Below are positions 1,440 through 17,282 of a stretch of 64,000 nucleotides of DNA, one piece after another; positions within the stretch are counted from its first letter, which is position 1, and each line of letters starts with the position of its first letter. Origin of the DNA: Phycisphaerae bacterium (GTDB taxonomy: Bacteria; Planctomycetota; Phycisphaerae; UBA1845). The position numbers and the translations under genes are program-made. The DNA lies in the NCBI GenBank assembly GCA_963666835.2, contig CAXXGO010000006.1, forward strand, positions 1,472,001 to 1,536,000, read 5' to 3'. The notes beneath the pieces were generated by a model. The model ran no database searches. It was not told the DNA's origin and saw only the letters and a program-made list of their open reading frames with translations.

Positions 1440-1670
1440 CTTAATTAGCAGGTTGTGGCGCCGGCGGACTGCCACGTCTTCCACCGGTGCGCGTAATCTG
1501 ATCGCAGAGTGGGCCGGGGAGTGCCCCGGCAATCGTAGCGTCGTGTTTTTCGCCCGGCGTAGCGTTTGGGCCGGCACCTCTTTGGCAAAGTACGTGCAGC
1601 GCCCCGTGCACTTTGGGCGGCGAGTGCCAAATGGAATGACATGCATCTGTTTTTTTGGAGGTCAAGGACG

Positions 1671-4310
1671 ATGAAAAAACGACAAGTCCGCGTAAAGCCG
1701 GCAGTCGCGAGAATGGTGTTTGTAGCGGTTGCGGTGTTCTGTTGGGACAGCCAAGGCGCATCGAGTGATCCCGAGGGAGTTGCCCCACTTTCTGAACAAG
1801 GCGAGGCAATCCCCTGCGCATCTTGGCCAACCGGAGCCGACGTTCGAAACGGCGCCTGCGGGCGCACCGTGGGGGCTTGCTGCGCCGCCGACGGCAGTTG
1901 CACACCGGATCTGTCACCCCAGGACTGTGACACCACCGGTGGCGCGTTCCTCGGTGTCGGCACCACGTGCGCGCCAAACTGCTGCCCGCCGCCGGAGACG
2001 GAAACGGGGGCGGACGCAGCTTGCGACATCTACGCGTGCCACGACGGAACCGACTGGGTCGCCCCCTACGATCTGTGCGGGGCGAGCGATCCGGGCGATC
2101 CAGACTGTGACGTCAGCGCCGGCGAGACTTGCCTGCTCCGCGCAACCGGTCCGACTGAGTATGCCATCGATATACCAACATACGGCGACCCCCCGAACGT
2201 AATCACGTTCATGGGAGACAGTAGCGGTCACGAGCCGTACTTCACTTCTGAAGACGGCGACGACTGCAACCTCGGGAGCGCTGCCGACCCCGGCTGGTAC
2301 GAGAGCTTCGTCGTTACGAACAATGACGGCCCGGAGTACGATTGCGCGGTCGTCACGTTGGATTTATGCTGCACCGATCCGATTCATATTCCGGCCTACA
2401 TCGTGATGAAGGACTGCTGCCCGTGTCCGGGTGGAAGTTGCTGGGTCGAGCTCGATCGACGCGCCGACGGCAGTGCCAAGTATGGCTGGGGGCCGGACTG
2501 CGAAGTGGAGGTCGACGGCGTGGAATACTGCTGCCAGGAGGGCAACTTTGTCGGCCAGTTCATGGTCAGGTCGGGCCGCCATTCCTGGCAGATTGCGACT
2601 GGTCGGATCTGCGAGGGCACGATGCACGGTTGCGAGACCGATGACGACTGTGATCCGGGCGTGTCGTGCGTAGACGTAGCGGGGCCGTACACCGGTCACA
2701 TCACCGTCGAAGCCTGTCCGCGGGCGGCCTGCTGCTTGAACGCATGCAGCGACTCGGCTTCGCCGAACCTGGTACCTTGCTGGGACGACAGTGATTGCCC
2801 GGGTGCCGGGGCTACCTGCAATACTACATGCGAGGTTCGCACGCGGTTGACCTGCGATCTAGACCACGGGCAATTCCTGAAGTTCGAAAGCGGTACCGAA
2901 GAGACGTGCTCACCGAACCCGTGTGTTTGGGGCGTTTGCCTGTTTCCTGATGGAGTTTGCGATGATTCGGTCGCTTTTGACACTGAGGTTGAGTGCGAGG
3001 CGTTCGGGGGTGTGTTTTACGGAGGGATAACCTGTGATCTCGTGCCCTTCGGATGCCCGTTCGAGAGCAGCAGCACCTGCAAGGAGGAATGTCCGGACAG
3101 CGAGATTGTCATGAGCGACTTGGCCAACGAGATCCGGATCGCGGACGACTTCCGCCCGGCCGGCACTCAGATAGGTGAAATCTGCTGGACGGCGGGATAC
3201 TACGGCGGCAACGATGAGGTGGGCGAGTTTGAGTGTTCGAGCAACCCGCCCTGGGGCGCCTGGGTCGTGCGTTTCTATCAGGATAACGCTGGTCTACCGG
3301 GCACAGAGGTCGGACCGGCCGGGGGCCAGGAAGTCATTATTCTGGCGTCGAACCATCACGGCGGTACAAGCCGCCTGTGGGATTATCACGCGATTCTTCC
3401 CAGTGCGGTGGACGTCAATCCGGGCGACTGCTATTGGATGGAGCTTACCGGCAACGGTGAAGGCCCGGATGGCTGCCATACATACTTGTCCACCGCCATC
3501 GAGGGCAACGACTACAGTATGTGGGACAACCTCGAGTACGGATCCTACGGCCCTGAAGACGCGAACAATGTGGACATCGTCTTCTGTTTGGACACGGGGC
3601 TCTCTGGCACCACTGATTGTGACGATGTTGTGGCAGCTTGCTGCACTTGTCCGGGTTGCACGCCGGATTTGACCGAATCGGAATGCGTTAGCGATCTGGC
3701 CGGCGTCTGGCGGTTGGGGCACACTTGCGCGACCGCAGCCTGTCCCGACGTCGCTCCGCACAACGACGACTGTGAGAATGCCGAGATCGTTGCGGGAATG
3801 GACAGTTGGCGCTGCCGCGGCGGCCTCAACGACGGCGACCCGTGCGATATCGCTAATTGTCACAGCGACTGCCCGGATGACGGCGACGACATAGGTCGGT
3901 GTATTGGTTATCGCATCATCACATTTGACAACGTCTGCGCGGCACGAGAGAACGAGCCGCCCACAAGTTGCGGGGGAGTGGGCGATCTGCATTACGACGT
4001 CTGGTACCGGTTCACCCCGCAGATAAGCGGCGTGTTGACGGTTTCGTTGTGCCCATCCGATGTGAGCGACGGAGCGCTGTGGGATACCATGATAGCGGTC
4101 TATGATACGGTCACATGTCCGGTGACGGCCGGTGACGAGATCAAATGTGGCGACGATGAATGCGACTTCGCCGGCCCATCGGAGATTACGCCTACGACAG
4201 TCTACGCGGGCCTGGAGTACCTGATTCGCATCGGAGGTTGGTCATCGCCGGCAACCTACGGAAACCCGCGCGGTTGGGGTGAGGTGGAGTTCTCCTTTGC
4301 GGATGGGTGA
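1671..4310 (+). CDS. Large secreted Cys-rich protein (GACC repeats, PPC-like beta-sandwich modules); may read through UGA 4308-4310 into the next ORF
   Basis: GGAGG SD at 1657-1661; signal-peptide-like N-terminus; GACC/AACC repeats; module 'NDDCENA...DVWYRFTP...DTMIAVYD...YLIRIGGW'. Confidence 0.8.
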   Translation: MKKRQVRVKPAVARMVFVAVAVFCWDSQGASSDPEGVAPLSEQGEAIPCASWPTGADVRNGACGRTVGACCAADGSCTPDLSPQDCDTTGGAFLGVGTTCAPNCCPPPETETGADAACDIYACHDGTDWVAPYDLCGASDPGDPDCDVSAGETCLLRATGPTEYAIDIPTYGDPPNVITFMGDSSGHEPYFTSEDGDDCNLGSAADPGWYESFVVTNNDGPEYDCAVVTLDLCCTDPIHIPAYIVMKDCCPCPGGSCWVELDRRADGSAKYGWGPDCEVEVDGVEYCCQEGNFVGQFMVRSGRHSWQIATGRICEGTMHGCETDDDCDPGVSCVDVAGPYTGHITVEACPRAACCLNACSDSASPNLVPCWDDSDCPGAGATCNTTCEVRTRLTCDLDHGQFLKFESGTEETCSPNPCVWGVCLFPDGVCDDSVAFDTEVECEAFGGVFYGGITCDLVPFGCPFESSSTCKEECPDSEIVMSDLANEIRIADDFRPAGTQIGEICWTAGYYGGNDEVGEFECSSNPPWGAWVVRFYQDNAGLPGTEVGPAGGQEVIILASNHHGGTSRLWDYHAILPSAVDVNPGDCYWMELTGNGEGPDGCHTYLSTAIEGNDYSMWDNLEYGSYGPEDANNVDIVFCLDTGLSGTTDCDDVVAACCTCPGCTPDLTESECVSDLAGVWRLGHTCATAACPDVAPHNDDCENAEIVAGMDSWRCRGGLNDGDPCDIANCHSDCPDDGDDIGRCIGYRIITFDNVCAARENEPPTSCGGVGDLHYDVWYRFTPQISGVLTVSLCPSDVSDGALWDTMIAVYDTVTCPVTAGDEIKCGDDECDFAGPSEITPTTVYAGLEYLIRIGGWSSPATYGNPRGWGEVEFSFADG

Positions 4311-4922
4311 ATGTGTCACAGTCCGCCGGTCTTGGCGGATGCCCCTGAGGATGGCCCGAAGAATCGCTACCTCTCGATCATGGCGGATAATGACGGTATG
4401 CCAACAGCGCTGCTCGTCGAAGTGGCATCCAGCGAGTACTTCCCGGATTCGGTCGGAGAAGTCAAGTATGTTGGCCCGGTCACGGCTGGCGGCTACTATC
4501 CGCTGATCTCCACGCCGTTGGCCCAAGTCTTGCCAGAAGATCCGCTGCATATCTTCGACTGCATGATCCACCCGGCCGCGACCTTCGAAGTCCGGGCCGG
4601 TGATGGTATTAGTAGCTGGTCGCCTCCGCTCGTGATTGCGACGAGTCCCAGACCCGGTCTTAAGAAGTGGGGCGACTGTGTCGGGGCCTTTACCGGTACC
4701 TGGCAACACCCGGAAGGCAACGTGAGTATCGTCGACCTGATGGCTGCGTTGCAGGCATTCAGCAGGGCGCCAACGGCTCCACCGGATCACTGGGTGGACG
4801 TCCACGATGAGGGCCCGAACAACATCGTGACGATGTCGGACGTCCTGTTGATTGTGAACGCGTTCATGGGCAACGATTACCCGTACGATCCGGGTACCGC
4901 GGCGATGCCATGCACTGATTGA
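4311..4922 (+). CDS. In-frame continuation: NRY-motif plus dockerin-like domain homologous to the C-termini of the proteins at 36976-38766 and 39307-41118
   Basis: ATG directly follows the TGA in the same frame; 'KNRYLS', 'WGDCVGAFTG', 'PNNIVTMSDVLLIV...YPY' match the paralog C-termini; no signal peptide. Confidence 0.75.
   Translation: MCHSPPVLADAPEDGPKNRYLSIMADNDGMPTALLVEVASSEYFPDSVGEVKYVGPVTAGGYYPLISTPLAQVLPEDPLHIFDCMIHPAATFEVRAGDGISSWSPPLVIATSPRPGLKKWGDCVGAFTGTWQHPEGNVSIVDLMAALQAFSRAPTAPPDHWVDVHDEGPNNIVTMSDVLLIVNAFMGNDYPYDPGTAAMPCTD
4322..4339 (+). promoter_or_regulatory. Candidate bacterial SECIS hairpin
   Basis: UCCGCC-GGUCUU-GGCGGA stem starts after an 11-nt spacer following the in-frame UGA; G-starting GGUCU loop resembles the E. 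coli fdhF SECIS. Confidence 0.35.
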
Positions 4923-5066
4923 TGTGATCAACTGAAGATCTCCCTACCGGGACGGGTGATCGCACCCGCCCCGGTTCCCTTCAATACCCGGTTGCGGTAA
5001 TCTGACAGTAACGTCGCCCGGCCTCGAAGGTCGGGCGGGGCGAGAGGCAGATTCGGGAGGACGAGT

Positions 5067-6440
5067 ATGTCCAGGACCCCGCGGTATGTTGCCGAGGGCA
5101 TCCGCCATGCAACGATTAATGGGCATCGGTTTCACCTTCGGCTCACCGATCCGACCCAAGAGAACTTCCTTTGGATCGACGGCCGGTCCCCGCCGCTGGT
5201 ACTCGACCAAGTGGCCGCGGAGTTCGTCGGATACCTCATCGATTCGATGTGGAAGTACCAGCAGGGGGCCGGGGATGAAAGCGACAAGGTCCGCGACGAA
5301 GTGGTCGAACGCATGTTCGAGCAGTACGGCCGGGCCTGGGCATTTGGCCGACAGCGCGTAACCCGCCAACGCATCCGGGCCGATTTGGACCGGATCTTCG
5401 GGACGTTAATGGTCGCGGCCGGTGGCGGCTGCCCGTTCGAGACGGGGCTCAAGACTCAGGAGATTCATCAGGAGGACTGGTCAGCCCCTGCGCGCATGGA
5501 CTTGGCAATCACCTATCGCTGCAACCTCAACTGTTCGCACTGCTACACCGGCGGCCCGCAGGAGACCGAGGAGCTTTCGCTGGATGATTGGAAGCGGGTT
5601 TTGGAGAAGCTCTGGCAGATCGGTATCCCGCAGCTCGTGTTTACCGGCGGGGAGCCCACCCTGCGCGAAGATCTCGTGTCTCTGATCGCCGAGGCCGACG
5701 AATTTGTCACCGGGTTGGTAACTAACGGGACGCGGTTGGCCGAGCTGGCCGAGCCGCTCCACGAGGCCAGCCTCGATTATGCCCAGGTCACCTTGGAGGC
5801 ACACGAGCCGGAGAAACACAATCGAATGGTCGCGGCCGGTGACGAGGACGCGTTTGCCCAGACGGTAGCCGGCATTCGCAAAGCCCTTGAAATCGGGATG
5901 GAAGTAGCGACTAACACGACACTCACCAGTGAGAATGCCGCTGGGTTCGAGGAGCTGTTGCGGTTTGGCAGGGACCTCGGCCTGGCTAACATGGCCTGCA
6001 ACTCGTTGATCTGCAGCGGCCGGGGTACCGCGGCCAAGCGTGACGACAGTCTGACCCCTAAAGACCTGAAAGGCATCTTGACTGCCGCGAACCGTACGGC
6101 GCAAGAGCTGGGCATCAACCTGCAATGGTACACGCCGACGTGCTACCATGAGTTGAATCCGTTGGAGCTGGGCTTCGGTCCTAAAAGCTGCTCGGCCGCG
6201 GCCCACAACATGACCATTCAACCGGACGGCACGGTTCTGCCCTGTCAAAGCTGGCCGGAGGCAGTGGGACGTATTCTGGAGGACGACTGGGGGAGCATCT
6301 GGGAGCACCCAGTGTGTCAGAAGCTCCGCCATCACGGCTTCGGCAAAGATCGCGCCGAATGTGCGGAGTGCGATCTGCTGGCGTTGTGCGGGGGCGGCTG
6401 TCCCCTGGAACACGGACAGATTCGCAAGGAGGGACCATGA
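5067..6440 (+). CDS. Radical SAM protein with C-terminal SPASM domain and probable N-terminal PqqD/RRE-like domain
   Basis: CNLNCSHC (CxxxCxxC), FTGGEP, SPASM Cys pattern CSAA..PC..CAECDLLALCGGGC; GGAGG SD upstream. Confidence 0.92.
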   Translation: MSRTPRYVAEGIRHATINGHRFHLRLTDPTQENFLWIDGRSPPLVLDQVAAEFVGYLIDSMWKYQQGAGDESDKVRDEVVERMFEQYGRAWAFGRQRVTRQRIRADLDRIFGTLMVAAGGGCPFETGLKTQEIHQEDWSAPARMDLAITYRCNLNCSHCYTGGPQETEELSLDDWKRVLEKLWQIGIPQLVFTGGEPTLREDLVSLIAEADEFVTGLVTNGTRLAELAEPLHEASLDYAQVTLEAHEPEKHNRMVAAGDEDAFAQTVAGIRKALEIGMEVATNTTLTSENAAGFEELLRFGRDLGLANMACNSLICSGRGTAAKRDDSLTPKDLKGILTAANRTAQELGINLQWYTPTCYHELNPLELGFGPKSCSAAAHNMTIQPDGTVLPCQSWPEAVGRILEDDWGSIWEHPVCQKLRHHGFGKDRAECAECDLLALCGGGCPLEHGQIRKEGP

Positions 6441-7399
6441 ACCGCTACGCTCTGCTGATCGGCATCGTCACCGGCATCACTCTGGTCCCCACCGGTGCAA
6501 CAGCCGACACCGGAACTTATGAGATTTCCGAGTACCGCGTGACGCTCGTGCCGCTTGAAGACGGTGTTGTCGAGATCACCTACTATCAGGAATGGCGAGT
6601 CACCGGCGGGAACATCCCCTGGATCACCGTAGGAACGGCTAACCGGAGATTCACGGTTCTACCCGACAGTGCCGGCGGAAGCGCCCGCAGCGTTACTCCG
6701 AAGAGCTCCGGCAACTGGTCCGGGGTACACATCGCGCTGGACAGAGAATACCTGCCAGGCGAGATTTTCGAAGTAAGTTTCAAGATCCGCCAGCGCGGGC
6801 TGTTCTATCAGGCCGACACGGGCTACCGGCTCGATTTCATCCCCGGCTGGTATGACCGGGGCAAGATCGGGAATCTCACCGTTGCGTTGGAGTTCTTCAC
6901 CGAACTGACCGGGGTCTCGGCCGGCCCGGAGCCGAGTGAAACAGCGCCGCAGCAACTGGTGTGGGAGCGAACCAACTTGCAGCCTGGCGAGCGGTTTCGG
7001 GTTGGCGTAACGTTCCCGCCGACTCTGTTTCCCGACAATATCGAGCTGGCGGAGACCTCACCCTACGACAAACAGGGCGGTTCGCGCGTCTCGCCCGTCG
7101 TTGGTTCCCTGCTGTTTTTTGCCTTCCTGGTAGTGATCGTTGTCATCTTGTTCGTATGCGCTAAGGGCGGACGTGGGAGCGACTACGGCGGGGGAGGAAA
7201 CGTCAGTATCGCAGGCATCCATGCGGCAACCGGTGGCCGGGTGGTCTCGTGCGCCTGTGCATGCGTGGCCTGTGCTTGCGCATGCGCCTGCGCCGGAGGC
7301 GGCGCCGCGGGATGCGATCGCAAACTGACACGCACCTGCCCATTGTGCGCATACTGCGAAGAAGAGGACTGTCCGCTACGAACTGGGACCCGACGTTAG
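6437..7399 (+). CDS. Single-pass membrane protein: signal peptide, DUF2207-like extracytoplasmic domain, TM helix, Gly-rich linker, Cys-rich CACAC..CACACACAGGG tail
   Basis: ATGA overlap with the rSAM stop codon; AAGGAGG SD; TM 'VVGSLLFFAFLVVIVVILFVCA'; 12 Cys in the last ~50 aa. Confidence 0.85.
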   Translation: MNRYALLIGIVTGITLVPTGATADTGTYEISEYRVTLVPLEDGVVEITYYQEWRVTGGNIPWITVGTANRRFTVLPDSAGGSARSVTPKSSGNWSGVHIALDREYLPGEIFEVSFKIRQRGLFYQADTGYRLDFIPGWYDRGKIGNLTVALEFFTELTGVSAGPEPSETAPQQLVWERTNLQPGERFRVGVTFPPTLFPDNIELAETSPYDKQGGSRVSPVVGSLLFFAFLVVIVVILFVCAKGGRGSDYGGGGNVSIAGIHAATGGRVVSCACACVACACACACAGGGAAGCDRKLTRTCPLCAYCEEEDCPLRTGTRR

Positions 7400-14767: not shown

Positions 14768-15241
14768 CACGGGCCAACATGTTGGCCCATCCACCCTGAC
14801 GGCACATTTGTACGGCAGGTCGAGGGACGAGACCTGCCGCACGTAACGCAGGCATCCTGCCTGCAGTGTGACGCAAAACACGCAGGACGACGCTTACGCG
14901 CCTTCGGAACGGATTGTCGTGTGGTTGCCTGATGATATTAGGCCTTCGCGCGATATGCGTTGTCGCGGCAGGTCTCGTGCCTCGACCATGCCCTACCGGC
15001 TGCTCAAGAGCAGGCTTCACGGCAGGTCTCGTGCCTCGACCATGCCCTACCGGCTGCTCAAGAGCAGGCTTCGCGGCAGGTCTCGTGCCTCGACCGTGCC
15101 CTACCGGCTGCTCAAGAGCAGGCTTCGCGGCAGGTCTCGTACCTCGACCGTGCCCTACGAGGGAGGCCACCTGGGTGGCATGGGTCAACTTGTTGAGCCG
15201 TGGAAGTGCGGCGGCAGGTCTCGTGCCTCGACCTGCCCTAC
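14768..15241. repeat. REP cluster including a 54-bp tandem array (3 full + 1 partial units, 14965-15158)
   Basis: Six copies of GTAG-GGCAGGTC-GAGGCACGA-GACCTGCC-GC or its reverse complement at 14810, 14965, 15019, 15073, 15127, 15211. Confidence 0.9.
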
Positions 15242-15298: not shown

Positions 15299-17200
15299 TC
15301 ACCGCGGCTTGATCGGGCGGCGCTGCTCGGGGATGGCGATCTCCTCTTCACCGCGAAGGTACTTTCCGGTGATCGAGTGTTTCGACGCTTTGATCTTGTC
15401 GATCGTGCCGTGGGCGACGACTTTCCCGCCGCGATACCCCGGCCCGGGTCCGAAGTCGACGATCTCGTCCGCGGCTTGCATGGTCTGCTCATCGTGTTCG
15501 ACGACAATTACCGTATTGCCCATGTCACGTAGGCGGCACAAAGAATCGAGCAGTCTGCTGTTGTCCCGGGCGTGCAGGCCGATACTGGGTTCGTCCAGAA
15601 TGTACAATACGCCGACCAACCCCGCGCCGATTTGGCTAGCCAAGCGAATCCGTTGCGATTCCCCGCCGGAGAGCGTCGGCGCCGTACGCGCCAGCGTGAG
15701 ATACTCCAAACCCACATCGCACAGAAACGCCAGACGGCCGCGAATCTCCTTGAGGACTTCTTCGGCAATAAACTGCTCGGTGGCTGTGAGTTTGAGGTCG
15801 GCGAAGAATTCAGCCACTTCCCGGATCGAGCCGGCGCACACCTCGTTGATGTTAAGCCCGCCGACGCGAACCGCCTGGGCCTGAGCGTTGAGCCGGCCGC
15901 CGCGGCAATCGGGGCACGAGGCCTTGCGCATGTACTTCTCATAGTAGGCCCGGACGAAGTTCGACTTGGCCTTGCGGTGCTTATCGCGGAGCTCGGAGAT
16001 GACGCCCGGGAACGTCCCGCCGTGCCGCCAGACTCCGCGAGACCACCGCCACTCGAAGGTGACGTGCGTATCACCCAAACCGTAAAGCAGCGCCCGCCGA
16101 GCTTTCTCCGGGAGCTTGCCCCACGGTGTTTTGAGATCGAATCCCACGTGCGCCGCTACACCGCGGTATAAGTGCCGCCGCCATTTGCCGATTCGCGTCC
16201 GCATCGGCTCGATGGCCAGATTGAGAAACGACTTGCGAGGGTCGGGTACCAGCAGGTCGGGGTCGAAGTCATAGGCGGTACCCATTCCATCGCAGGTCAG
16301 GCACATTCCGGTCGGCGAGTTGAAGCTAAAGAGCTGCGGCGACGGCGCTTCGAAACTGATCCCGCAATCCGGGCAGGCGTAGTGCGCCGACAGCAACAGA
16401 TCGTTCGACCGCTCGCTCCTCGGCTTGGCTCGGCGAACCCGTCCGGATCCCGGCGGGGACGGGTTCGACACGGCTCCGTCGGAGACCGTTTGGATGATAA
16501 CGGTCCCGTCACCTAACCGCAGGGCGTTCTCCACGGCCTCCGCCAGTCGGGGGCGGGCCGTTGGGGATACCGTTAGCCGATCGATGACGACTTCTATGTT
16601 GTGGCGGATCTGCCGAGCCAGGGCCGGGGCGTCGGCCAGCGTGACAATCTCGCCATCGACGCGGGCTCGGGCATAGCCCTGCTTAGCCATGTCTTCGAAG
16701 AGGTCCCGGTATTCACCTTTCTGACCGCGCACCACGGGGGCGAGGACGAGTACCCTCGTGTCCGTCGGCAGCTCGGAGATTCGCGCGATAATCTGCTCAC
16801 GGGTCTGGGCGCTGATGGGCTTGGCGCATTGTGGACAGTGCTGACGGCCGACCCGGGCGAACAGCACCCGCAGATAGTCTTGAATCTGTGTGATAGTGCC
16901 GACGGTACTGCGCGGGTTCCACCCGCTGGACTTCTGTTGAATCGAGATTGCCGGGCTCAGCCCGGTGATCTGGTCGACGTCGGGCTTGGCGAGTTGCCCG
17001 AGAAACTGGCGGGCGTACGAGCTTAGAGACTCGAGGTAGCGGCGTTGCCCTTCGGCGAAGAGAGTGTCGAAGGCGAAGCTGCTCTTTCCACTACCGGATA
17101 CGCCGGTGAAGCAGACCAGTTTTCCTCGCGGCAAGCGCAGCGATACATCGCAGAGGTTGTGCTCGCGAGCACCTTTAACTGTGATCGTTCGAGGTTCCAT
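15299..17200 (-). CDS. uvrA: UvrA excinuclease subunit A, N-terminal half only (633 aa; truncated or split gene)
   Basis: GAREHNL, GVSGSGKS, Zn fingers, LSGGE, LDEPSIGLH, VEHDE; stops at the interdomain linker before the second ABC domain. Confidence 0.9.
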   Translation of the reverse strand: MEPRTITVKGAREHNLCDVSLRLPRGKLVCFTGVSGSGKSSFAFDTLFAEGQRRYLESLSSYARQFLGQLAKPDVDQITGLSPAISIQQKSSGWNPRSTVGTITQIQDYLRVLFARVGRQHCPQCAKPISAQTREQIIARISELPTDTRVLVLAPVVRGQKGEYRDLFEDMAKQGYARARVDGEIVTLADAPALARQIRHNIEVVIDRLTVSPTARPRLAEAVENALRLGDGTVIIQTVSDGAVSNPSPPGSGRVRRAKPRSERSNDLLLSAHYACPDCGISFEAPSPQLFSFNSPTGMCLTCDGMGTAYDFDPDLLVPDPRKSFLNLAIEPMRTRIGKWRRHLYRGVAAHVGFDLKTPWGKLPEKARRALLYGLGDTHVTFEWRWSRGVWRHGGTFPGVISELRDKHRKAKSNFVRAYYEKYMRKASCPDCRGGRLNAQAQAVRVGGLNINEVCAGSIREVAEFFADLKLTATEQFIAEEVLKEIRGRLAFLCDVGLEYLTLARTAPTLSGGESQRIRLASQIGAGLVGVLYILDEPSIGLHARDNSRLLDSLCRLRDMGNTVIVVEHDEQTMQAADEIVDFGPGPGYRGGKVVAHGTIDKIKASKHSITGKYLRGEEEIAIPEQRRPIKPR

Positions 17201-17282
17201 GGGCGGGTGACACCTGGCCGCCGTCACGCGCCGAGCCGCTTTGCCAAGCACTCGCGCGGTGCCGACCGTGGACGAAGAGCGC

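Follow-up and report, generated by a model that had tools for sequence, protein, structure and literature searches.

The window, a 64,000-nt stretch of Phycisphaerae bacterium DNA (GenBank assembly GCA_963666835.2, contig CAXXGO010000006.1, positions 1,472,001 to 1,536,000), carries two overlapping genes on its + strand: one for a radical S-adenosylmethionine (SAM)/SPASM enzyme of an unnamed family and one for a single-pass membrane protein, hereafter the partner, whose Cys-Ala-rich tail is likely the enzyme's substrate. Both genes and their ATGA overlap lie where the original prediction for this DNA had placed them, and the residue strings it quoted from the N-terminal domain of the enzyme and from the tail are correct to the letter. 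The features are as follows, where RRE stands for the recognition element of ribosomally synthesized and posttranslationally modified peptides (RiPPs) and pLDDT for the predicted local distance difference test.

5067..6440, + strand: radical SAM/SPASM enzyme, 457 aa, unnamed family (open reading frame [ORF], Pfam, model with pLDDT 91)
5100..5420, + strand: predicted RRE-like N-terminal domain, residues about 12-118 (secondary structure, structural overlay, PqqD matches in relatives)
5520..5543, + strand: CxxxCxxC radical SAM cluster motif, C152/C156/C159 (invariant in 84/84 aligned rows and in all three subtypes)
6141..6401, + strand: SPASM cysteines C359, C375, C393, C432, C435, C441, and C445 (alignment)
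6437..6440, + strand: ATGA start/stop overlap (bases shared by enzyme stop and partner start)
6437..7399, + strand: single-pass membrane protein, 320 aa from the ATG at 6437, likely substrate (ORF, model)
6437..6505, + strand: predicted signal peptide, residues 1-23 (sequence, N-terminal helix in the model; ends before an invariant DTGxY start)
6506..7036, + strand: outer beta-sandwich domain, residues 24-200, DUF2207-like (confident in the model, structural matches)
7094..7165, + strand: transmembrane helix, residues about 220-243 (model; one hydrophobic segment in homologues)
7181..7222, + strand: predicted RRE-binding internal leader, residues 249-262, with invariant Y250 and G253 (predicted complex, alignment)
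7247..7315, + strand: Cys-Ala core, residues 271-293, with seven Cys, a Gly run, and an eighth Cys (alignment)
7337..7372, + strand: C-terminal CxxC(xxC-x-C) knuckle, residues 301-312, possible metal site (conservation)

Shine-Dalgarno-like runs stand ahead of both starts (GGAGG at 5056-5060 for the enzyme, AAGGAGG at 6426-6432 for the partner), and the two genes are probably translationally coupled through the ATGA overlap. Neither gap flanking the pair holds a + strand ORF of at least 20 aa, so no short precursor lies there, as the original prediction had also noted. The window's genome encodes a single such enzyme (809 bits on the family profile, with the runner-up at 44) and one such tail gene; a six-frame scan of its 6.0 Mb finds two Cys-Ala arrays, the second inside a 38-aa open frame. 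The closest named relatives are Phycisphaerales proteins from metagenome-assembled genomes (MAGs), at 72% for the enzyme.

Fold of the enzyme and architecture of the partner

The enzyme passes the Pfam cut-offs for Radical_SAM (PF04055, 85 bits against 29.5) and SPASM (PF13186, 37 bits against 21.5). It reaches no NCBIfam cut-off among the 25 best of 78 listed families, nor do any of 10 relatives (E 1e-28). Since these cut-offs were missed and TIGR04463 (rSAM_vs_C_rich), tested directly, also failed, with 27 bits for the window's enzyme against a cut-off of 525 and 0/5 genomes above it, we rejected assignment to a known family. The pair is real and no artifact, and it lies outside every named family tested.

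In an AlphaFold2 model built from an 84-row alignment, the N-terminal domain, judged within the whole enzyme, consists of four strands followed by three helices. The best structural match is SkfB (Z 29.4, root mean square deviation [rmsd] 4.2, 339 residues aligned, model residues 20-447), together with SuiB (Z 29.3, rmsd 3.7-3.9, 366-371 aligned, model residues 13-456). SkfB and SuiB have N-terminal RREs, and both overlays take in the N-terminal domain, whereas anaerobic sulfatase-maturating enzyme (anSME; Z 24.7) and similar proteins align only from about residue 139. Pfam PqqD matches the N-terminal domains of 8/24 relatives (best 6e-8), with no match in the window's own enzyme; a profile of the 24 domains finds the stand-alone RRE TfuB1 weakly (E 0.053), and an Atlas search puts a PqqD cluster on top at 0.87, a lead only. 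These matches bear out the RRE-like pattern originally read in this domain, which is predicted to adopt an RRE fold.

The partner has no Pfam or NCBIfam match. In its model, an N-terminal helix and a confident sandwich (24-200) precede a single helix (220-243), and the tail is of low confidence, which agrees with the order of signal peptide, outer domain, single transmembrane helix, and tail proposed earlier. Residues D24, T25, G26, and Y28 are invariant. The outer domain has the fold of the ribophorin-I/M1-aminopeptidase N-domain (VIA Z 15.0, rmsd 3.2, 170 residues aligned to 6s7o_E; also found by Foldseek). The nearest Atlas clusters are named DUF2207 (0.97 and 0.91); with the DUF2207 profile itself (PF09972) the window's partner gives no match, and one relative from another subtype (type II, below) reaches 17.5 bits against a cut-off of 24.4. 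We collected homologues as the best 120 of 924 matches at E 0.001 among 6300 candidates, and in 119/120 of them a single hydrophobic segment precedes the tail. Since the N-terminal domain is exported and only one such segment follows, the tail probably faces the cytoplasm. Eight natural fusions carry the core internally, with another hydrophobic segment plus a TPM-like region behind it (Pfam TPM is on record for 7), an arrangement that fits both an inside location and an intact protein.

Conservation is concentrated in the tail. In 70 aligned rows all eight core Cys, most Ala, Y250, and G253 (the last two in 70/70) are invariant, and the majority residue reaches a mean frequency of 0.92 across the core, as against 0.63 for the outer domain and 0.31 for the membrane helix. 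The core is present in 119/119 listed homologues (from the best 120 of 924), a figure favored by a tail-containing query. The position three residues after each core Cys is Ala in 59% of cases, then Cys, Gly, or Val. After the core, 115/120 homologues have a CxxC, and 49/120 the four-Cys form found at 301-312, a possible metal site. The same ten core residues are encoded by 44 distinct DNA versions (chosen by pattern, hence synonymous by construction), and Tandem Repeats Finder reports only a weak 43-nt array at the core. Because of this codon diversity and the invariance at the protein level, we rejected DNA slippage or chance as the origin of the repeat.

The same data bear on whether the partner might instead serve as a RiPP precursor, one with an exceptionally long leader, whose modified core is cut off and released. 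The Gly runs that flank the core would suit such release, as would the 47 GTDB loci (among the matches listed) whose proteins end a few residues past it. However, the outer domain is conserved, the core is internal in the 8 fusions, the window's cassette has only two genes, and no protease or exporter family recurs among the neighbors of the 160 loci clustered, although a housekeeping protease is possible. We consider release highly improbable.

Co-occurrence of enzyme and tail

The original prediction had called for a survey of gene neighborhoods, and its outcome is an almost perfect co-occurrence of the two families in both directions. Starting from the enzyme, we matched its alignment to metagenomes and kept the best 80 loci, several of which are near-copies, so that counts are not independent. 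The partner directly follows the enzyme in 69/70 loci with at least 140 nt downstream, with an xTGA junction in 41/69 pairs, and 48/49 complete partners contain the core. Starting from the tail alone, a pattern scan of GTDB returned at least 119 loci, of which 79 have flanks; the 40 short ones stand outside the neighbor counts. Seven of the 79 (L021, L022, L025, L029, L043, L049, and L059) were judged chance matches, and at 66/72 genuine loci among the matches listed the enzyme lies within 8 kb, three of these enzymes being frameshift-split. At four others (L006, L010, L064, and L071) it is elsewhere in the genome. Record titles of tail loci include Clostridia, Anaerolineae, Planctomycetota, Myxococcota, Bathyarchaeia, Methanomassiliicoccales, and Heimdallarchaeia, and from record names most carriers appear to be anaerobes.

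Whole genomes give the same picture, with counts that include kin and are not independent and with a clade-separating score gap that is empirical. Among 121 genomes of one Chloroflexota class (that of L004), 19 have the enzyme (472-604 bits) and the identical 19 have the tail, in several cases on different contigs. Of 150 scored genomes of the class of L017, the enzyme occurs in 3, and the tail in the same 3. In the window's own phylum, where a tail-pattern match in genome G032 was rejected as a simple hexamer repeat with no tail gene, the enzyme was found in 2/201 genomes, both with tails; the system is therefore patchy there. The two genes are thus coupled, and each family predicts the other.

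Some genomes depart from one enzyme per tail. G028 has two tail genes (L064 and L220) and only one enzyme was found; the L034 genome likewise has two tail genes. In a Clostridium MAG (L027:3840-6477), three tandem partner paralogues stand behind one enzyme; two have variant tails, and the middle one stops after the membrane helix. No enzyme-partner fusion was found among 3 longer homologues, which is weak evidence.

Among other neighbors, genes for TPM and LemA follow in 26/35 metagenome loci with room for them. The window's genome has an ordinary LemA-TPM pair (G000:C6:493843-495234) far from the cassette and a second LemA gene; cassette-type LemA and TPM queries found no match in it. Clustering the neighbors of 160 loci yielded no recurring small ORF family of at least 45 aa besides the Zn-ribbon gene described below, and no other gene common to all subtypes.

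The surroundings of the window's cassette are unexceptional. Two large genes for predicted secreted proteins flank it, with a GC content that the pair matches. The region 1566-4922 reads as a 914-aa Cys-rich secreted-type ORF with its TGA stop at 4308-4310 and a 203-aa ORF that begins in the same frame at 4311 and gives a weak GC-type dockerin match, possibly one stop-split gene. In the gap upstream of the enzyme, a small hairpin-like element (4946-4982) coincides with the only Rfam match, a subthreshold one to CRISPR-DR29 (23.5 bits against a cut-off of 39). Promoter and terminator scans of the locus gave nothing remarkable, and no RNA element is shared among 11 related loci. One of these 11, L148, has a cobalamin riboswitch upstream of the enzyme gene (5626-5845), on the opposite strand and part of the divergent operon. 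Farther away, at 14963-15158, a 54-bp unit is repeated in tandem (3.6 copies with 97% likeness), just past the end of a minus-strand ORF (15299-17251) that we take to resemble uvrA. No RNA data set carrying this DNA is listed; contigs of two sequencing runs, possibly the source of this DNA, cover the stretch unchanged.

Subtypes, sister system, and predicted internal leader

We distinguish three subtypes. In type I, that of the window, a single helix is followed by a tail that continues to the CxxC. Type II, from Bacillota, is alike, with an enzyme that lacks the second cluster motif. Type III (47 GTDB loci among the matches listed) has partners of 530-600 aa that end at the core, and the outer domains of types I and III are homologous (hhalign 96.8%). 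Type III loci also usually bring companions: in 39 loci a small membrane protein with a Zn ribbon and a Pro-x-Trp C-terminus, in 25-27 a methyltransferase, and in 22 an enzyme paralogue without cluster cysteines. This paralogue, seen at L004:4123-5316 and 21 other loci, keeps the RRE-like domain and barrel, lacks CxxxCxxC and most or all SPASM cysteines, and is possibly a scaffold or competitor. At L239 and L241 the tail and Zn-ribbon genes stand apart from the enzyme and converge on hypF-hypD and an AIRS-family (hypE-like) gene, a neighborhood that is probably incidental since the strands are opposite.

A sister clade of enzymes scores 270-362 bits on the profile and lies beside membrane proteins whose tails end in (Cys-His-Ser-Ala)n, here CHSA as against the CA tails above. 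A CHSA-type tail accompanies the sister enzyme in 7/8 cases read directly in the window's phylum, 2/2 in Clostridia, and 19/21 in Chloroflexota, there as (CHxA)n. The sister clade never occurs with CA tails (21 of the 121 Chloroflexota genomes carry it), and none of the 121 has both systems, an absence with a chance of 0.02 on the assumption, not valid here, that genomes are independent. In a quickly built tree of 71 proteins, whose outgroup branches are long and which lacks bootstrap values, the CA enzymes (Shimodaira-Hasegawa-like approximate likelihood ratio test 96) and the CHSA enzymes (99) form separate groups, as expected of substrate-specific enzymes. Enzyme clade thus matches tail motif, and both tail types favor Ala directly before Cys and three residues after it. 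Homology between the outer domains of CHSA and CA partners is not supported (hhalign 9.5%). Sister loci (L205-L212, L214-L219, and L228-L235) often continue with a 340-400-aa gene that has no Pfam match above cut-off.

Across 84 enzymes, only C152, C156, C159, C375, C393, and C445 are invariant cysteines. A CX2CX5CX3C motif, presumably ligating auxiliary cluster II (AuxII) by analogy, is found in 24/25 type I, 36/36 type III, and 0/23 type II enzymes and also in the sister clade; an extra Cys near 359-361 is found in 25/25 type I, 35/36 type III, and 11/11 sister enzymes. This pattern leaves the chemistry unsettled, since type II lacks the motif and the others have it plus the extra Cys. An epimerase would need an H-donor Cys; none is universal (C311 and C316 are not conserved across subtypes), and we ranked epimerization low.

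These comparisons also bear on whether the Cys stay unmodified and bind metal or an Fe-S cluster, with the enzyme as a loading or sulfur-transfer factor or the tail as a sulfur source. Seven Cys at alternate positions would line up on the same side of a strand, His joins Cys in the sister tail, and Zn-ribbon-like CxxC pairs lie close by, after the core in type I (115/120), inside 6/22 type II partners, and in a separate small gene at 39 type III loci. However, the enzyme keeps its full radical machinery in 84/84 rows plus an RRE, which in characterized cases serves covalent peptide modification; its clades follow the tail sequence closely; and simple metal binding would not be expected to need letter-perfect Ala. 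The original prediction had left cross-linking and metal or Fe-S assembly side by side; these points favor covalent modification, and we consider an unmodified metal site unlikely.

How the tail might be recognized is suggested by a predicted complex of enzyme residues 1-450 and partner residues 242-316, modeling that had also been proposed originally. It scored 0.73 against 0.00 for the best of 3 controls, above a mark that 116/157 solved complexes and 2/215 mismatched pairs reach and that is rough with self-made alignments; runs share at least 32% of contacts, and the partner has a pLDDT of 40. The confident interface joins enzyme residues 42-50, 87-88, and 98-117, which we take to be the strand and helix of the RRE leader groove, to partner residues 249-262 in antiparallel order. 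A YxxG motif lies between helix and core in 119/120 homologues, a median of 7 residues past the helix. The docking of 249-262 in the groove suggests an internal leader directly after the membrane helix, gripped by the RRE. A leader motif universal to all subtypes was rejected, since the sequence differs by subtype.

That the model places 249-262 and not the Cys core with confidence might instead mean that the tail has no more than a tethering or regulatory role toward the enzyme at the membrane, the true substrate being a lipid, another protein, or a small molecule. Many type III loci, with their clusterless paralogue and methyltransferase, would fit such a larger assembly. Against this, no other gene is common to all subtypes, and tethering leaves unexplained both the invariant Cys core beside the binding motif and the switch of enzyme clade with tail motif. 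We give it little credence, as little as release of the core.

Proposed modification and known systems

Co-occurrence, RRE fold, and docking all support the proposal, already made in the original prediction, that the tail is the enzyme's substrate, and we regard it as very probable; the accompanying idea of a sensor found no direct support. We propose that the RRE-like domain would bind the short internal leader that closely follows the membrane helix, and that the enzyme would cross-link the neighboring Cys-Ala repeat by thioether bonds, the protein staying whole in the membrane. A 5'-deoxyadenosyl radical would take H from Ala (or Val/Gly), and that carbon would join a Cys sulfur, possibly of the Cys three residues upstream, a donor suggested by the fact that both tail types put Ala at this distance (equivalently, directly before a Cys). 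This would give a DUF2207/TPM/LemA-type membrane module a segment that is rigid and rich in sulfur. The role of this product, the weakest step, would most likely be metal binding or envelope-stress signaling, judging by Cys/His content, nearby Zn-ribbon-like motifs, and TPM/LemA company. If the tail is the substrate, thioether cross-linking is somewhat more probable than all other chemistries combined; taken by itself, cross-linking on the intact membrane protein is the most likely single chemistry, with roughly even chances of being right. The full picture is plausible but somewhat short of an even bet: an old cross-domain system whose dedicated enzymes would recognize the internal leader at the surface of the membrane and stitch interlocked Cys-to-Ala thioether rings into a DUF2207/TPM/LemA-type protein that stays intact, on its cytoplasmic tail. 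It would exist in two interchangeable versions, (Cys-Ala)n and (Cys-His-Ser-Ala)n, each having an enzyme clade to itself and the two never co-occurring in the genomes searched.

Several observations weigh against this proposal. Locus L163 has an enzyme with no partner within 4.8 kb, the partner at L162 is truncated and tail-less, the L016 and L031 genomes, both fragmentary, yielded no enzyme, and the window's cassette adjoins neither TPM nor LemA. The positive-inside charge test of the cytoplasmic location is weak: 71/120 homologues are as expected, and the window's own protein is contrary. The Cys core is not confidently placed in the predicted complex, whose score comes from self-made alignments and may reflect memory of, or likeness to, solved RRE-leader complexes, and the leader-like motif is not common to the other subtypes. 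On the enzyme side, type II lacks the AuxII motif, and by analogy the Cys near 359-361 could fill AuxI, so that the open-site signature argued for CrpC is not clear here. Ala is also an unusual acceptor compared with the Gln/Asp of CrpA.

Should thioether cross-linking hold, it would be an undescribed modification of a whole membrane protein, and bacteria and archaea would be using RiPP chemistry as a standing posttranslational modification, applied to a membrane complex, in a system that extends to Bathyarchaeia, Methanomassiliicoccales, and Heimdallarchaeia. Neither Pfam nor NCBIfam has a name for the family, common though it is in some groups: one version or the other occurs in about a third of the 121 Chloroflexota-class genomes sampled. 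The window's two-gene cassette is a minimal test case. Its chemistry could be tested on the soluble tail, 75 residues long and with a predicted binding motif, and the CA and CHSA systems provide a naturally occurring exchange of specificity.

A different chemistry would have the enzyme oxidize each Cys without a cross-link, for example to a thiooxazole, as SbtM does, or by way of a thioaldehyde, as anaerobic sulfatase maturase does. The substrate motif of the latter is CxPxR/CxAxR, which is absent from the tail, and no sulfatase is among the recurring neighbors. anSME is nevertheless close in fold, and a possibly fully ligated AuxI would suit anSME-like chemistry. Strict invariance of Ala is better explained if the Ala react or must be small. 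According to PMC11002830, SbtM (TIGR04082) is likewise a radical SAM/SPASM enzyme that acts on Cys of a ribosomal substrate, turning it to thiooxazole (-4 H); the enzyme here reaches only 72.9 bits on its model against a cut-off of 350, and the partner, tail included, has no in-frame TGA for selenocysteine.

An oxidized tail would be a membrane-tethered metal chelator, the anaerobic counterpart of the TIGR04222 Cys tails modified by MNIO (DUF692). According to PMC12452194, Cys modification is proposed for MNIO and TIGR04222 membrane proteins, whose Ser/Gly-rich, Cys-bearing C-terminal segments recall those described here, and bufferin products chelate copper. That enzyme is of another class, its tails are predicted to be periplasmic, and the link is loose (490/1372 TIGR04222 genomes are without MNIO), whereas here the tail is nearly invariant and probably cytoplasmic and the link is close to absolute. 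The window's partner does not match TIGR04222 at E 0.1; among 20 proteins scanned, two type III partners match weakly, at 17.5 and 18.5 bits against a cut-off of 43. MNIO is not among the recurring neighbor families whose representatives were scanned, no direct family search having been made. Overall, we consider oxidation without a cross-link a secondary possibility, more probable than an unmodified metal site and well behind thioether cross-linking.

Two further comparisons concern the parts of the system. The partner resembles DUF2207/TPM/LemA modules in its DUF2207-like outer domain, in the TPM/LemA genes that follow, and in the natural partner-TPM fusions; no report came to light in which such modules bear a Cys core or have an enzyme dedicated to them, and the present pair could provide a first biochemical handle on them. 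The enzyme shares its domain order with SkfB, SuiB, and CteB (Protein Data Bank 6efn, 5v1s/5v1t, and 5why) and the predicted binding by strand addition in the RRE groove, at 16-20% identity and only 62 bits on the SkfB model against a cut-off of 300; unlike those systems, this one comes without a small precursor, a protease, or an exporter. The link that SuiB makes is C-C, so that the fold does not fix the chemistry.

In the literature searched, which mostly did not extend to subscription papers, we found no description of the enzyme-tail pair. The closest precedent is CrpC of Methanococcus voltae, which, according to PMC13692751, installs thioethers on the 28.8-kDa CrpA at Cys-x-x-Gln/Asp motifs, much as QhpD, engaging a protein subunit through its RRE, forms them on QhpC. 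There, too, an RRE-radical SAM-SPASM enzyme adjoins a full-size Cys-repeat protein, with the Cys preceding the acceptor (CxxQ/D), and an open site is argued from three Cys on AuxI. CrpA as described there lacks a membrane segment, is recognized through an N-terminal sequence, and has ten repeats of 17 residues. The likely substrate here is exported and spans the membrane once; it has a predicted N-terminal signal peptide in place of the recognition sequence, a predicted internal leader, and a short Cys-Ala core without CxxQ/D repeats. The protein filter given there was at least 5% Cys above 250 aa, and with Cys at 13/320 residues the window's partner would fall outside it. Neither the CA nor the CHSA motif appears in the protein text searched in PMC13692751, which does not cover Figure S3, a picture of other archaeal Cys-rich sequences. 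QhpD/QhpC differs in its small subunit, N-terminal leader, and Asp/Glu acceptors, and no dehydrogenase gene recurs among the neighbors clustered here. Very few tested cases of radical SAM cross-linking involve full-size proteins (QhpC and CrpA), and we found none on an integral membrane protein; most likely, the enzyme described here works like CrpC and QhpD, but on such a protein.

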